NCBI GenBank assembly: GCA_947367055.1
Contig: CANBCI010000001.1
Location: forward strand, 77,632 to 141,631
DNA from: an uncultured Alphaproteobacteria bacterium
GTDB lineage: Bacteria; Pseudomonadota; Alphaproteobacteria; Rs-D84
DNA: 64,000 bases
Direction: 5' to 3'
Part shown: piece by piece, positions 4,610 through 43,814 of the stretch
Numbering within the stretch: position 1 is the first letter of the stretch
How the letters are laid out: each line of letters begins with the position of its first letter
Program-made: the position numbers and the translations under genes
Notes under the pieces: model-generated
Told to the model about the DNA's origin: nothing
Database searches by the model: none
The model's input: the letters and a program-made list of their open reading frames with translations, nothing else

Positions 4610-4801
4610 CAAAAACCACCAAAAAACGGTGGCTGGGGGATGAGAACAACTTCGAGAAATTGTGGGCTTATTTATCTATATCGCCGCCCCCCAGCACTCT
4701 GGCCGGGGCACTTTTCATCACACAAAAAAAGACACTTTTACGCTTTTTTAGCATGACGCTCGAAAAGGGTTCTCATACCCGTCGACAGAACACCCGTCGA
4801 C
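4610..4801 (-). ncRNA. C4/CI-like antisense leader RNA module, copy 1
   Basis: Minus strand: hairpin GTCGACGG-GTGTT-CTGTCGAC, hairpin GGGT-ATGAGA-ACCC, site TTCGAG; cloverleaf 4632-4695 closed by GCTGGGGG/CCCCCAGC exposing CTCGAA and GTTCTCAT (complements of the upstream sites); terminal CCACC/GGTGG hairpin plus T-run. Function inferred. Confidence 0.7.
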
Positions 4802-4808
4802 AAAAATC

Positions 4809-4837
4809 ATTATACGCAGGCGTTCTTTGCAACGCAA
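4809..4837 (-). promoter_or_regulatory. sigma70-type promoter for leader copy 1
   Basis: TTGCGT-N17-TATAAT on the minus strand, 7 nt before the first hairpin. Confidence 0.7.
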
Positions 4838-4877
4838 GTTATTTATGATATAATGTCACAGACATACAGGATTAAAA

Positions 4878-5555
4878 ATGCTGGAAATTAAAAATTTAAC
4901 CGTATCAATGGGCGGGAAAACGCTGTTGCGTGATATAAATATGAATGTTGCGCGCGGCGCGCGCCACTTGCTGTCCGGACATAACGGGTCGGGTAAATCA
5001 ACACTGGCGTCAACAATCGCGGGGAACCCGGAACTAAAAATTGACAATGGGAAAATAATATTCGACGGTCGCGATATAACAAATGAAAACACAACCACGC
5101 GCGCGTTGCTGGGGATATTTCTGGGGGCGCAAAACGTTCCGGAAATTCCGGGGCTTACCGTTTTGTCTTTCCTAAAGCATTCGGCCGCCGCGCATCATCA
5201 TTTTCAAACGGGTCGCGATTTGTCCATGGGGGAATTCCTAACCCGGCTGGAAGAAGTCCGCGAACGGCTGTCCATTCCGAAAGAATGGCTAAACCGCAGT
5301 GTAAACGTCGGCTTTTCCGGCGGCGAACGAAAACGCCTGATGCTGTTGCAACTGATTATGACGGAACCAAAATTTGCAATTTTGGACGAACCTGATTCCG
5401 GCGCGGACGCCAAGACCCAGGAACTGATTGCGCGGACAATGCGTGAAATGTCCGGCACAACATTTTTATTTATCAGCCACCAGGAAAAATTCACACAACT
5501 GGTCGGCCCGACCAATACAACGGTTATGTCAAACGGGCAAATCGATGCAAAATAA
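4878..5555 (+). CDS. sufC: Fe-S cluster assembly ATPase SufC
   Basis: GHNGSGKST Walker A, PEIPGLTV, LNRSVNVGFSGGERKR, ILDEPDSG. Confidence 0.9.
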   Translation: MLEIKNLTVSMGGKTLLRDINMNVARGARHLLSGHNGSGKSTLASTIAGNPELKIDNGKIIFDGRDITNENTTTRALLGIFLGAQNVPEIPGLTVLSFLKHSAAAHHHFQTGRDLSMGEFLTRLEEVRERLSIPKEWLNRSVNVGFSGGERKRLMLLQLIMTEPKFAILDEPDSGADAKTQELIARTMREMSGTTFLFISHQEKFTQLVGPTNTTVMSNGQIDAK

Positions 5556-5571
5556 ACAAAAGGGAAACGGC

Positions 5572-6516
5572 ATGAAAAAAAATGCATCCGCAACAAACGA
5601 AACGGCAAAACTTTCAACATGGCTGCTCAAGGCACCATTGAAATTTGCGTTGTCGGCAACACTGCTGTCTTTGGCGGCAATATTTATTTATGCGCTTATC
5701 GCACGGCAAGGAACCGTCGCATGGCCGATATTTTCAATATTCGGTGTGATTACCGCGATATGCGCGGTCTGGATGTTGCGCCGTACGCCGTCGGTGCAAT
5801 TAAGTCACCGTGAATTTGTTGCGATTGATTTGGGGATTAGCATCATTTTAATTATCATGCCGATTGTCCTGCTTGTGGCGGGATACTTTGTAATTATACC
5901 GTTAATCGGCAAAATGATAGCGCAACAGTCAATTATCTCGCTTGCCATACTGGGGATTTTTGCTTGCATTATATCAATGTACCAAATCGGCCTGTCGATT
6001 ATAAATATGCAACCCGTGTACAACAGAACGCGGACACTTGGCGTGCCAAAATGGAAGGCCATATTTTCCCTGCCGTTTTCATTGCTGGCGATTCCGTGCT
6101 ACATGCTGGACGATAAAAAGAACACAACACAGTCTGTTAAAATCGGCAGCACATGGTACGACCGCTTTATCAATCAAATTATATCGCGTGACATGTACAT
6201 ATGGGCTGCAATTATAGCAACGACATTCGCCGCCGTTTTAATCGCCCCGGGGGCGGCGATAATAATACTGCCGATGGTGGTATCAGAAATATTGATTTAC
6301 CTGATTTGGGAAAAAGTAACCGGGCGCGAAAAACTGCGTAAAAATATTGGCGGCGCATTTGCAACAACCGCGGTGATTTTAAACATACTATTTGTTGCAA
6401 TGTATGTAATTTGGATTGGCGCCAACATCAACACGCGCCATAAAATCGCAACGGAAATATCGGCGCAGTATGCCGAAACAATAACCATAACGGACACGCA
6501 AAATACTGCACAGTAA
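5572..6516 (+). CDS. Hypothetical polytopic membrane protein
   Basis: About 7-8 hydrophobic segments; start set at ATG 5572 behind AAGGGA. Confidence 0.75.
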   Translation: MKKNASATNETAKLSTWLLKAPLKFALSATLLSLAAIFIYALIARQGTVAWPIFSIFGVITAICAVWMLRRTPSVQLSHREFVAIDLGISIILIIMPIVLLVAGYFVIIPLIGKMIAQQSIISLAILGIFACIISMYQIGLSIINMQPVYNRTRTLGVPKWKAIFSLPFSLLAIPCYMLDDKKNTTQSVKIGSTWYDRFINQIISRDMYIWAAIIATTFAAVLIAPGAAIIILPMVVSEILIYLIWEKVTGREKLRKNIGGAFATTAVILNILFVAMYVIWIGANINTRHKIATEISAQYAETITITDTQNTAQ

Positions 6517-6558
6517 AAAACGCGCTATGTGCACGAATACAAGGCATAGGAGATTTTT

Positions 6559-42189: not shown

Positions 42190-42690
42190 ATGAATCAGTC
42201 CGCGGCAGAAAAAAGAATACGGGATCTCGGCATGGACGACATGCCGCTGATGCAGTTTCAACCGACGCCGACCCGCATTGCGGACAACTGGTTTGCGAAA
42301 TATCGGCAAACCGTTCGAAAGTTTATGACGTCGCTTACCGATTCGGTGGAAAGTCTGGCATTTATGAACCTGTCCCAGGATGAATTTATGTCCCTGATTA
42401 TGGGCCGTGCAATGCCTGAAAATCTATCGGTACGAATGCGTGTGCCTTTATTTTTAGGGGGCCCCATTGAAATAGACAACATGTTTTTATGCCGAACGTT
42501 CCCACATTCGCACAATCTGGACAGATTTATAATTGAACAAGCCGGGTCTGAAACATTATGGTTGCCGAACCCCGTAAAAAAAGTATATCTGCCGGCGCAT
42601 ACAACCGGCGGCGGTGACGGGGGTAACGCGACCGAAGACCGCCTGGCGCAAATGGCGGCGCAAATCGCCGCAAGCCGCGGCATGGAATAA
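42190..42690 (+). CDS. Hypothetical protein with degenerate HNH-nuclease-like motif
   Basis: G..MPENLSVRMRVPLFLGG....DNMFL....PH follows the G..P....VHH..PL..GG.N...NL.L....H pattern without the His pair. Confidence 0.55.
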   Translation: MNQSAAEKRIRDLGMDDMPLMQFQPTPTRIADNWFAKYRQTVRKFMTSLTDSVESLAFMNLSQDEFMSLIMGRAMPENLSVRMRVPLFLGGPIEIDNMFLCRTFPHSHNLDRFIIEQAGSETLWLPNPVKKVYLPAHTTGGGDGGNATEDRLAQMAAQIAASRGME

Positions 42691-42699
42691 GGGGCGAAA

Positions 42700-43134
42700 A
42701 TGACCAGTAACGAATTCTTGGCATCCATAAAGGCGCGCGGCGCGTCATTCGCGCCGGGGACGACACAGCGCGACATAATACTGGCAACAAATGCACTAAT
42801 GGCGATGCATGCCGCCAGACTGCCGCAGTACATGTCGGATCTATATATAAATGCCGGTGGCATAAACCTTGGGGCGGGCTACATTTTCGGTCCGACCGAA
42901 TGGACCGCAAAACGCGGCGTTCCCGTACCGGGGATAGTAAACATCAACAATGAAATTACAAAAATTCCGTCCATGCGCGGCAAAACGGTATTCGGCCGCA
43001 ATGATTTATTCTGGTTTGTATTCGATACGTTCGGCACGTGCTATATGCTGGATAATGTGGCGTTGCGCGAATTGCGCAAATATGACGACCCATATAAAGC
43101 CATGACAGATTGCCTGATCGCGGGGAAATTTTAG
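42700..43134 (+). CDS. SMI1/KNR4 (SUKH, YrhA-like) family protein
   Basis: LPQ...DLY...GGI......IFG ... VFG......FVFD pattern. Confidence 0.55.
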   Translation: MTSNEFLASIKARGASFAPGTTQRDIILATNALMAMHAARLPQYMSDLYINAGGINLGAGYIFGPTEWTAKRGVPVPGIVNINNEITKIPSMRGKTVFGRNDLFWFVFDTFGTCYMLDNVALRELRKYDDPYKAMTDCLIAGKF

Positions 43135-43136
43135 GT

Positions 43137-43337
43137 ATGAAAAAAATATCGGTTTCATTATCCGGTCATCAAACCAGCATTTCGCTGGAGCCGGAATTCA
43201 TAGACGCATTGCATGAAATTGCCGGCGTCCAAAACCGACCGGTCGGCGCAATAATAAATGAAATTGATAAAACGCGCGGGCGGACAAACCTGTCGTCCGC
43301 CGTGCGCGTGTGGATTTTGAAAAACGTGAGCTCCTAG
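43137..43337 (+). CDS. Ribbon-helix-helix domain protein (RHH_4-like)
   Basis: K.SV.LSGHQTSISLEPEF..AL.EIA......ID......NLSSAVRVWIL. Confidence 0.85.
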   Translation: MKKISVSLSGHQTSISLEPEFIDALHEIAGVQNRPVGAIINEIDKTRGRTNLSSAVRVWILKNVSS

Positions 43338-43759
43338 CGCTGGTTCCCCTGGTTCGGCCACATGGGCGCCCTGTCCGGTTTAACCGTGCCGATATTATTG
43401 ATTTGATATATCTGCCAACTGTGCAATTTCGGGTTGTAAATTTCTATAACCTCAACTTTGGTGAACGCTGAAAAATTCATAATCGCCTCGCCGGGGTGAA
43501 CGACGCGCGTGCATATGTGCGTCTCGCCCGTATCAAAATCATTAACATGGTACAAGACATTCTGCACACCGGCGGTGTCCGCATCCACTATTTCCACTTT
43601 TCTTATCATGCCGACCGTACGACGCGCGGCGGCATCGACATTTTCAATTTTATATGATTTTTTATCGGTCTTTTTTTCCTGCGCAACGGCGGGCGACCCC
43701 ATTGCCAGCACGGCGGAGGCCCCACCGACCAGCAACGCCTTTTTTAAATCTTTTTTCAT
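43334..43759 (-). CDS. Secreted hypothetical protein
   Basis: AGGAG RBS; signal peptide MKKDLKKALLVGGASAVLAMGSPAVA. Confidence 0.8.
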   Translation of the reverse strand: MKKDLKKALLVGGASAVLAMGSPAVAQEKKTDKKSYKIENVDAAARRTVGMIRKVEIVDADTAGVQNVLYHVNDFDTGETHICTRVVHPGEAIMNFSAFTKVEVIEIYNPKLHSWQIYQINNIGTVKPDRAPMWPNQGNQR

Positions 43760-43814
43760 GTTTTCTCCTATAACTTACCGGGTTTCGACACCCGAATACG
43801 ACAACCAATCGTAC
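43760..43814 (-). promoter_or_regulatory. Target-only leader matching the copy-2 antisense RNA
   Basis: Minus strand TACGAT-TGGTT-GTCGTA hairpin, CGGG-TGTCGAAA-CCCG hairpin, then TTATAG overlapping the AGGAG RBS. Confidence 0.6.

Follow-up and report, generated by a model that had tools for sequence, protein, structure and literature searches.

A multicopy family of C4-like leader RNAs with private two-part address codes in an uncultured gut alphaproteobacterium

C4-type RNAs and the leader family

C4-type RNAs are known as single phage immunity devices. C4 itself is an RNA of about 77 nucleotides (nt) whose 5' end is matured by RNase P. The leaders considered here lie in a 64,000-nt stretch of DNA (the window) from an uncultured alphaproteobacterium of the order Rs-D84. 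The genome of the window (G000; 959,553 base pairs (bp), 5 contigs, completeness 96.4%, contamination 0%) holds it at G000:C1:77632-141631, and positions given without a contig are those of the window. A preliminary description of the window had singled out three dispersed leaders with a C4-like layout, each in front of a gene for a secreted-type protein. These leaders belong to a large family in the genome, and they probably represent a chromosomal, greatly expanded branch of the leader type that comprises C4 with a1b1 (phages P1 and P7), IsrK and the CI-seqA leader of phage P4, acting here as self-addressed autoregulatory switches.

C4, c4-a1b1 and IsrK have already been described (PMC2864571; PMC4825925). 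In phages P1 and P7, differences in two short complementary segments have been reported to restrict cross-reaction (Citron and Schuster, 1990, as cited in PMC5320573). The account of IsrK from Salmonella Gifsy-1 in PMC4825925 gives an inactive, cis-paired fold and an active fold, and in the experiments related there the short leader RNA works in trans upon the transcript that reads through, with an activating effect. The same source describes P4 CI with seqA and seqC as a processed, leader-derived RNA that pairs with an upstream site in the same transcript and controls premature termination. The RNA sRNA-Xcc1 is reported from integron cassettes upstream of symE in Xanthomonas and from some APSE phages (bioRxiv 10.1101/2025.06.18.660453; PMC7313666). 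The Group 1 C4-like small RNAs (sRNAs) of Acinetobacter baumannii have been described as a large chromosomal family in one genome (PMC5320573), so that, with this precedent, a multicopy chromosomal C4-like family is not new in itself.

The core of the leaders in the window is a cloverleaf made of a closing stem (stem P1) and two hairpins (P2 and P3). A search with nhmmer and a hidden Markov model of the core yielded 46 copies in the 0.96-Mb genome at E<1e-3, and a covariance model on P1-P2-P3 (R1) yielded 53 copies at E<=1e-3, of which 46 scored at least 41.9 bits. Further copies had been anticipated in the preliminary description, and the three leaders do belong to a family of 46-53 in G000. 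Covariation supports the core structure: across 39 copies 88.9% of the alignment cells are paired compared with 72.0% after shuffling (none of 500 shuffles reached the observed value), doubly changed cells number 140 compared with 49 in the shuffled sets, and only 30-48% of cells pair in controls with slid partners.

The anatomy of a unit was read from 33-39 aligned copies. The 5' end is a sigma-70 promoter, with a -35 that is often TTGCAA and a near-invariant TATAAT, followed by a hairpin, H1, often GTC...GAC with the loop GGGTGTTC. A small G/C hairpin of 3-4 bp, S, holds site a (7-9 nt, ending in AAC) in its loop, and site b, 5-12 nt long, starts 2-7 nt past site a. Next comes the hairpin H3, mostly CGTC...GACG, which encloses a GC hairpin and a T run in 6 of 37 copies; an A-rich spacer and then a strand able to pair with stem P1 (the anti-P1 strand) separate H3 from the core. 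Stem P1 has 9-11 bp (GGnnGGAGG/CCUCCnnCC), P2 has a loop related to GAAUAUAUUGAAUA, and P3 (CAAUU/AAUUG) presents b', the counterpart of b, within its loop, with a' (GUUnnnA) in the junction 5' of the P1 3' strand. Past the core there is a hairpin with a T run (T2), then a Shine-Dalgarno sequence, then ATG. Units are tightly coupled to the gene downstream. In 30 cases a gene of at least 70 amino acids (aa) starts 35-60 nt past the core (median 47), leaving no room for a further promoter in the interval, and in 11 of the 46 units another unit follows within 400 nt instead.

Set against the immI leader of phage P1, by means of the phage record and the Rfam alignments, this layout matches part for part, as the preliminary description had held. 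The phage record places the -10 at 48218-48223, a1 at 48255-48261, b1 at 48269-48276, c4 at 48343-48419, a2 at 48423-48429, b2 at 48452-48459 and icd from 48470, and annotates a1/b1 as putative only. In the phage leader H1 precedes a small hairpin whose loop contains a1 (c4-a1b1, 51.0 bits), and past b1 there is a terminator-like hairpin with a U run that is covered by the isrK model. In c4 a closing stem carries two hairpins, the second of which has b' in its loop; a' occupies the 3' junction, and CCACC comes next. The likeness to P1/P7 C4 and a1/b1 (RF01695, RF03163) takes in the promoter, H1, the a1-loop hairpin, b1 a few nt on, the hairpin enclosing a terminator-like stem and U run, and the three-way-junction RNA; the loop of hairpin 2 again holds b', the 3' junction again holds a', and CCACC lies beyond it here too. 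The feature proper to c4-a1b1 is likewise present: H1, a small a1-loop hairpin and b1 lie on the same strand upstream of a C4-like RNA. As a side result, the isrK model scores 35.1 bits (gathering 50) on the a1/b1 leader of phage P1 (L058 48230-48311), which suggests that IsrK and the c4 a1b1 leader may be the same kind of module.

Differences from phage P1 are equally plain. The closing stem is about 17 bp in the phage and 9-11 bp here. Features of the units that set them apart from the phage leader are the large, AU-rich loop of P2, the hairpin formed with anti-P1 and a ground state that is closed. The phage carries a2/b2 on the icd ribosome-binding site, whereas here the intrinsic terminator-like T2 stands directly 3' of the core, the icd/ant and phage context is absent, and there are about 50 copies per genome. 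No consistent a2/b2 was found in cis downstream of the cores (own duplex -13.7, non-own -13.1 kcal/mol), and therefore the repression mode of phage P1 cannot apply to the linked gene.

The Rfam models were also run, and no copy reached the gathering threshold for C4, c4-a1b1, sRNA-Xcc1 or isrK. The C4 model (RF01695, gathering 45 bits) gave no match in the window at the gathering score; the three leaders stayed unmatched at E<=10, as did 20 more loci at E<=5. With the same model the c4 of phage P1, as positive control, scored 68.8 bits. Below-threshold matches on the correct strand and in the correct place were obtained with c4-a1b1 (RF03163, gathering 46.7), at 15.1 bits on copy 2 (31370-31423) and 18.5 bits on L027. 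The cores gave 42.0, 37.9, 37.4, 31.9 (copy 3) and 26.8 bits with sRNA-Xcc1 (RF02221, gathering 53), and L027 gave 25.4 bits with isrK (RF01394, gathering 50), all below threshold. The proposal of a domesticated phage immunity device thus stands as regards the layout of phage P1, the codes and the absence of phage genes; it falls short on the Rfam thresholds, which are missed, and on a2/b2, which is not found in cis.

The other described systems resemble the units in part. IsrK (RF01394; downstream STnc1160/orf45) shares the logic of a cis-closed versus an open state, and its model covers H1, the a1 hairpin and the terminator of the phage P1 leader. In the description of PMC4825925, IsrK is a single prophage locus in an antirepressor/antiterminator cascade that works through a small upstream open reading frame (ORF), whereas here there are many copies and no such ORF logic. 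Unlike those of IsrK, the genes here are chromosomal envelope or secreted-protein genes, and a terminator-like hairpin with T run between b and the core occurs in only 6 of 37 leaders. P4 CI, likened here by its published description, has one site upstream and another downstream, and its role is in phage immunity. The sRNA-Xcc1 model is the best-scoring Rfam model on the cores, and that RNA is reported with a closing stem and two hairpins, upstream of and co-oriented with a protein gene; it is a single-copy RNA of mobile cassettes, and the accounts in PMC7313666 and bioRxiv 10.1101/2025.06.18.660453, so far as they describe it, give no a/b module or address code. The A. baumannii family, compared by description, shares longer, 5'-extended transcripts and variable antisense loops that are proposed to set the targets; its variability lies mainly in a', two antisense sRNAs are proposed as controllers, and the description of the family in PMC5320573 gives no matched cis a/b, closed fold, terminator-then-gene order or link to secreted proteins. 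Within the accounts of C4-type RNAs and of Enterousia that were consulted, no earlier description was found of a megabase genome with about 50 copies of the full a1b1-plus-core module. The same holds, in the same literature, for matched private codes, a covariation-supported closed fold with anti-P1, the terminator-then-gene arrangement and the link to secreted proteins.

Address codes and alternative folds

A core was scored as carrying a code when two exact complements stood upstream of it: one to a', of 6 nt or more, and, no more than 22 nt beyond, one to b', of 5 nt or more. The own two-block site was found upstream in 37 of the 46 G000 copies, with at least 13 bp in total in 35 of the 37, compared with 123 of 2070 non-own pairings, of which 19 had at least 13 bp. 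What the preliminary description had claimed for three leaders, an own address with exact complements, holds for most copies in the genome. Nine copies failed the test, two of them through errors in the parsing of stem P1, and the sites of these two are visible in the sequence. Ranking by RNAduplex with long flanks was noisy (own target first in 24 of 46), and the exact two-block test was used instead. Site a falls into few classes (TGAGAAC, TCGAAAC, TGGAAAC and others), and b is near-unique to each copy.

The same has been obtained with the relatives of G000, in which the own two-block complement was present for 120 of 138 distinct cores (117 with at least 13 bp; 136 loci) compared with 405 of 6000 random non-own pairings, and 111 different b words occurred among the 120 sites. 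Homologous genes in other species (27-47% identity) are leader-headed too and carry other self-complementary codes. For example, the code is TCGAAAC/TAAGTTATAG in G000 and TCAGAAC/TAATGTATCG in the leader of a homologous gene, L121.

Each leader can adopt two mutually exclusive folds. The closed rod, and not the cloverleaf, is the minimum-free-energy (MFE) fold in all 37 whole leaders and lies 11.2 kcal/mol (mean; standard deviation 4.0) below the best fold in which stem P1 is enforced; for copy 2 the predicted fold has -86.4 kcal/mol and z = -6.8. In the closed rod a pairs with a', b with b', and a G-run 5' of a with CCUC of the P1 3' strand, and the upstream anti-P1 strand sequesters the P1 5' strand in a hairpin. 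The open fold has a in a hairpin loop and b single-stranded, and its tRNA-like P1/P2/P3 cloverleaf exposes b' and a'. The covariation of the closed helices was measured in a MAFFT alignment of 22 short-form leaders. The helix of a:a' and G-run:P1' is paired in 88.3% of cells and doubly changed in 7 of its 11 pairs; for the anti-P1 helix the values are 92.3% and 5 of 8. The closed fold overall is paired in 86.6% of cells compared with 70.8% for shuffled alignments (0 of 500) and 37-50% for slid controls. In the same alignment the open fold (S hairpin plus P1) reached 84.9% compared with 72.2% in the control, and covariation of P3 was seen in the 39-copy core analysis. Covariation supports both folds.

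The anti-P1 strand is specific for the stem P1 of its own unit. A stem of at least 7 bp with the own P1 was found in 34 of 44 copies compared with 111 of 352 swapped pairs in G000, and in 99 of 129 compared with 146 of 1032 in the relatives. When a/b was left out of the calculation, stem P1 appeared in the MFE fold of 22 of 44 leaders, and when anti-P1 was left out too, in 36 of 44. Because P1 returns to the MFE once a/b is left out, a/b pairing is the main lock on the cloverleaf.

The predominance of the closed rod raises the question of a purely cis-acting leader, in which the rod would be the sole functional fold (for instance a stabilising 5' untranslated region, a protein-binding platform or a constitutive attenuator), a:a' and b:b' would be ordinary helices drifting by compensatory change, and trans action would play no part. 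Besides the MFE of 37 of 37 leaders, this explanation can draw on a trans-target search at chance level and on the rarity of a/b modules that have no core (1 in G000, at most 1 of 38 a/b matches in four relatives; both given below). Against it, the cloverleaf stems P1 and P3, incompatible with the closed fold, covary on their own; 7 of 46 cores have no upstream a/b at all; one core-less a/b module matches an unlinked core over 19 nt; and b is hardly reused (111 distinct among 120), varies from 5 to 12 nt in length and shows more turnover than the core stems P1 or P2. A cis-only leader is accordingly held to be unlikely.

The copy number has also to be weighed against a mobile or selfish repeat (of the miniature inverted-repeat transposable element or repetitive extragenic palindrome kind) or a promoter-terminator cassette that has no specific regulatory role. 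High copy number, unrelated gene families downstream and tandem copies would fit such an origin. Strict co-orientation with genes, a unique self-complementary code in each copy that is upheld across species, and the covariation of two alternative folds all speak against it, and no terminal inverted repeats or target duplications were seen in the aligned flanks, where no search was aimed at them. This explanation is regarded as very improbable.

Proposed mechanism and its assessment

Under the proposed self-addressed switch, each unit would be transcribed on its own between its sigma-70 promoter and the terminator T2, and no route into the linked gene is visible other than readthrough of T2. 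By analogy with C4, the cloverleaf would be the form cut out by RNase P. The RNA from a unit, as a processed cloverleaf or as a short leader RNA, would pair only with transcripts of the same code, and such pairing would shift the balance of closed and open folds, which in turn would gate the maturation of the small RNA as well as readthrough into the linked gene or its translation. Cross-talk between the roughly 50 copies in the genome would be prevented by the orthogonality of their codes. The RNA of a unit may also act in trans in the manner of phage P1 C4, for which an unlinked ribosome-binding site at 43766-43788 is the candidate. The family with its anatomy, the two folds and the specificity of the codes are shown by the analysis; release of the cloverleaf by RNase P, action in trans and an effect on the gene are expected on the example of the known systems. 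RNase P RNA (185.7 bits) and Rho are present in G000, and an Hfq domain was not found in this 96.4%-complete genome.

The candidate for action in trans is a core-less a/b module on the minus strand (43760-43846), with a promoter, H1 at 43797-43813, site a TCGAAAC (plus-strand 43782-43788) and site b TAAGTTATAGGA (43766-43777). It scores 37.9 bits with a covariance model of the a/b module (R2). Site a lies in an S hairpin, b begins 4 nt past a, and no core follows; b overlaps a Shine-Dalgarno AGGAG that stands seven bases 5' of the ATG at 43759. The gene behind it (43334-43759, minus strand) encodes 141 aa with a signal-like start and no Pfam family. An unlinked core, L039 (G000:C4:11956-12058), carries GTTTCGA and TCCTATAACTTA, complementary to the core-less module over 7+12 nt, and matches its own cis site over 7+10 nt; the H1 sequences of the two loci are unrelated. 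By the arithmetic of the analysis (46 cores, both genome strands), the chance of such a 19-nt two-block match is about 3e-3. The core-less module and the L039 core may thus be a candidate, as a single case, for the a2/b2 situation of phage P1 in trans.

Among the 36 a/b modules that R2 finds in G000, only the one at 43760-43846 has no core. In four relatives, 36 of 38 a/b modules recognised by R2 lie just upstream of an R1 core. Of the two that have no R1 core, one (L185) has a divergent core by eye and the other (L184) has none. L184 (G003:C2:219860-220160) is an a/b-like module of 40.5 bits with R2 and has no core within about 170 nt; a core with an a' matching it was not found in its 94%-complete genome. 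No core-less a/b module was present among the 136 loci of relatives, the one apparent case being a cut at the edge of a locus.

Several results weigh against the proposed switch or against its kinship with C4. No model of the Rfam C4 clan (CL00128) reaches its threshold, and R1 does not rise above noise on the immI region of phage P1 (4.3 bits at c4, E 5.5). Because of these two results homology rests on architecture and on sub-threshold matches, and the relation to the C4 type appears to be one of architectural relatedness, not of membership in an Rfam family. The leader of phage P1 keeps its cloverleaf in its own MFE, and therefore the closed ground state is not a shared property of C4. The small RNA, its processing and termination are predictions from sequence. 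Genome-wide trans targets at 7+7 nt numbered 97 compared with 121 in the reversed-sequence control, core-less a/b modules are a single case in G000, and the pair of core-less module and L039 was not found in three relatives that have homologues of the L039 gene leader, where the code of the homologous leader occurs only at its own locus and on the opposite strand of its own core. Two ideas on the output step also performed poorly. Occlusion of the Shine-Dalgarno sequence by freed CCUCC strands was rejected, since the predicted unpaired probability was 0.46 in the free state and 0.39 with a/b blocked (n=29), too small a difference. In 40 of 45 copies the foot of T2 shares 2 nt or more with P1', and the cloverleaf was considered as an antiterminator of T2; this is retained as no more than an idea, with overlap in 90% for the own and 86% for swapped P1' strands and a foot complementarity of 2.25 compared with 2.11 of 4 pairs. 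Because swapped P1' strands overlap equally, the overlap of T2 foot and P1' is a feature of conserved sequence and lacks covariation support. With Shine-Dalgarno occlusion and T2-foot/P1' competition both weak in silico, no output step is established.

The chance-level trans-target search bears in addition on the explanation that the units are independent trans-acting sRNA genes of the classical C4 kind, whose targets would be other mRNAs or transcripts of invading phages or plasmids, with a/b as a cis decoy that covers the antisense loops up to processing and the gene downstream as incidental. The trans match on a ribosome-binding site would suit this, as would tandem arrays of units with no intervening ORFs, and a role of this kind has been proposed for the C4-like family of A. 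baumannii (PMC5320573). There is no excess of chromosomal targets, however; the gap to the co-oriented gene is fixed at 35-60 nt with no room for a promoter in 30 cases; and leaders of homologous genes elsewhere keep the arrangement while the code changes. Independent sRNA genes are therefore an improbable explanation, more so than a cis-only leader.

As to the sign of regulation by the self-addressed switch, activation by opening, on the analogy of IsrK, and repression, on that of P1 and P4 immunity, are two possible outcomes to which the same modest weight is given, and other outcomes take up the rest. A more specific model, in which each unit would be a bistable, self-activating switch whose same-code cloverleaf opens nascent leaders and so yields more processed RNA and more readthrough, is speculative and rather unlikely. 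If it were true, there would be about 50 independent, heritable ON/OFF states for secreted or surface proteins and XRE regulators, amounting to RNA-only phase variation in a genome of about 900 genes in which Hfq was not found. Cases at ribosome-binding sites, such as 43766-43788, would then allow mutually exclusive expression, and more than 100 orthogonal RNA-RNA address pairs would be available in the family as a natural library.

Independently of the sign, a complete a1b1-plus-C4 module heads about 1 in 20 transcription units of a reduced, uncultured gut alphaproteobacterium, and the genes behind the units encode in the main Cys-rich secreted orphans, outer-membrane proteins and XRE regulators. 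It would seem from this that a genome poor in protein regulators relies on a single RNA device, varied through a two-part address, for much of the control of its surface and secretome. With its hundreds of natural, inherently specific a/a' and b/b' pairs and its two folds backed by covariation, the family makes the working of a1/b1, the encoding of orthogonality and reuse in synthetic biology directly testable.

Leaders, genes and relatives

The address words quoted in the preliminary description were all found in place by a sequence check, and the order of parts and the loops (H1 loop GTGTT in copies 1 and 3; GAATATATTGAATA in copies 2 and 3) were confirmed as well. The cloverleaf length of 64-69 nt holds for copies 1 and 2 (64 and 67 nt) and not for copy 3 (72 nt). 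Alignment of the three leaders, over about 230 nt, requires that copy 2 be taken in plus-strand and copies 1 and 3 in minus-strand orientation; each is then directly followed by a co-oriented gene, with ATG at 4589 (minus), 31635 (plus) and 37063 (minus).

Copy 1 lies on the minus strand, and its words read on the plus strand are ATGAGAAC at 4640, GTTCTCAT at 4769, TTCGAG at 4651 and CTCGAA at 4759. The promoter (4809-4832) has a -35 TTGCAA and a -10 TATAAT, the column of the latter being near-invariant in a 33-leader alignment. H1 (4781-4801) is GTCGAC GGGTGTTCT GTCGAC, and the H1 stem shows changes on both sides in 7 of 7 pairs. The stretch 4759-4780 holds the S hairpin with site a ATGAGAAC (plus-strand 4769-4776) and then site b TTCGAG (4759-4764). 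H3, the spacer and the anti-P1 strand (plus-strand 4702-4708), which pairs with the P1 5' strand, occupy 4696-4758. The core of 64 nt (4632-4695) comprises P1/P2/P3, with b' at plus-strand 4651-4656 and a' at 4640-4647, and is matched by R1 at G000:C1:82234-82330, that is, 4603-4699 of the window (69.1 bits). The terminator-like hairpin T2, CCACCGTTTTTTGGTGG with a T run, lies at 4610-4633, and the gene (3942-4589) encodes a Cys-rich protein of 215 aa with a signal-like N-terminus and no Pfam family.

Copy 2 lies on the plus strand, with TCGAAAC at 31410, GTTTCGA at 31557, TTATAGAG at 31420 and CTCTATAA at 31547. The promoter region (31345-31376) has a -10 TAAAAT. H1 (31383-31403), the S hairpin with site a TCGAAAC (31410-31416) and site b TTATAGAG (31420-31427) make up 31383-31427, and the H3 hairpins and the anti-P1 strand CTTCCAACC (31493-31501) lie in 31428-31506. 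The core of 67 nt (31507-31573) has b' CTCTATAA at 31547-31554 and a' GTTTCGA at 31557-31563; R1 matches it at 31504-31603 with 88.6 bits. The foot of the terminator-like hairpin T2 (31570-31595) has the last bases of P1' in common with the core. The gene (31635-32246) encodes a Cys-rich protein of 203 aa with a signal peptide-like start and no Pfam family.

Copy 3, again on the minus strand, reads on the plus strand CTAGAAAC at 37124, GTTTCTAG at 37265, CCTATG at 37135 and CATAGG at 37253. Its stretch 37253-37335 comprises the promoter (-10 at about 37305-37310), H1 (37278-37298), site a CTAGAAAC (plus-strand 37265-37272) and site b CCTATG (37253-37258). The long-form H3 (37185-37252) contains an inner GC hairpin with a T run (T1-like), and anti-P1 is at plus-strand 37186-37193. 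The core of 72 nt (37113-37184), with b' at plus-strand 37135-37140 and a' at 37124-37131, is matched by R1 at 37085-37184 with 81.7 bits. T2, again a terminator-like hairpin, lies at 37091-37116, and the gene (36293-37063) encodes 256 aa with a signal-like N-terminus and no Pfam family.

Pfam was searched with 28 downstream proteins, of which 18 had no family at E<=0.01 and seven exceeded a curated cut-off (HTH_3 twice, Glyco_transf_8, OMP beta-barrel/OmpA twice, PAP2 and PLDc_2). By a crude rule, signal-like N-termini occur in 17 of 31 downstream proteins compared with 182 of 884 background ORFs (odds ratio 4.7, p = 4e-5), and 18 of the 31 have at least six cysteines. The notion of switches for secreted or surface proteins holds as regards this enrichment and has to be widened, since XRE, GT8, PAP2 and PLD-like genes are also headed. 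Small Cys-rich secreted-type proteins, with up to 23 Cys in 203 aa and no Pfam family, form a set among the downstream genes, and a C-terminal C-x-x-C ... CY-like spacing is common by eye to several of the Cys-rich proteins. On other contigs, XRE genes stand behind arrays of two to six units; the ORFs around these arrays look housekeeping by eye (chaperonin, ribosomal proteins, elongation factor) and not phage. Phage or antirepressor genes had been said not to adjoin the leaders, and none were seen, either by Pfam on the 28 downstream proteins or among neighbouring ORFs by eye.

Tandem arrays of 2-6 units are located at G000:C3:144100-145720, C4:26930-27740, C5:20900-21270 and C1:52060-52400. 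Some array units are devoid of the a/b module and some of T2, and in some arrays there are no ORFs between units. Most arrays end at an XRE-type helix-turn-helix gene, and the array on contig C4 ends at a PLD-like gene. Two adjacent cores on contig C4 are only about 90 nt apart.

Candidatus Enterousia (order Rs-D84) has been described as comprising gut bacteria with genomes of about 0.75-1.0 Mb (PMC12306168). R1 matches 34 of 36 sampled species of the same genus (genomes of 0.6-1.1 Mb, at most 50 matches each) and, more weakly, 18 of 24 genomes from other families of the order. In a sample of the class with one genome per family, R1 scores 42-50 bits once or twice per genome in 9 of the 149 other genomes. 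Four of these distant class-level matches (L054-L057, 42-50 bits) were considered as a bridge to C4 and rejected, as they belong to no Rfam family and have only tRNAs nearby. A motif scan of a species-representative collection gave at least 120 stretches; among the matches listed, all but one are from metagenome-assembled genomes titled Alphaproteobacteria, Candidatus Enterousia, proteobacterium, "bacterium" or Rickettsiales bacterium. L086, also among the matches listed, is on a contig labelled as an uncultured Muribaculaceae bacterium, which may be mis-binned. L185 (G029:C1:265240-265540, minus strand) has a normal a/b (TTAGAAC / AAGTTTGTG) and a divergent core that keeps complementary a' and b'; R1 misses this core, and the family is therefore broader than R1.

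Two tRNA genes, at 10383-10455 (minus strand, 73.0 bits) and 18753-18825 (plus strand, 73.8 bits), are the only gathering-level Rfam matches in the window. Close to the gene of copy 2, two long ORFs overlap on opposite strands, 32309-32599 (minus) and 32247-32630 (plus); the start of the minus-strand ORF is of TatA/E type by eye, and the plus-strand ORF is probably spurious.

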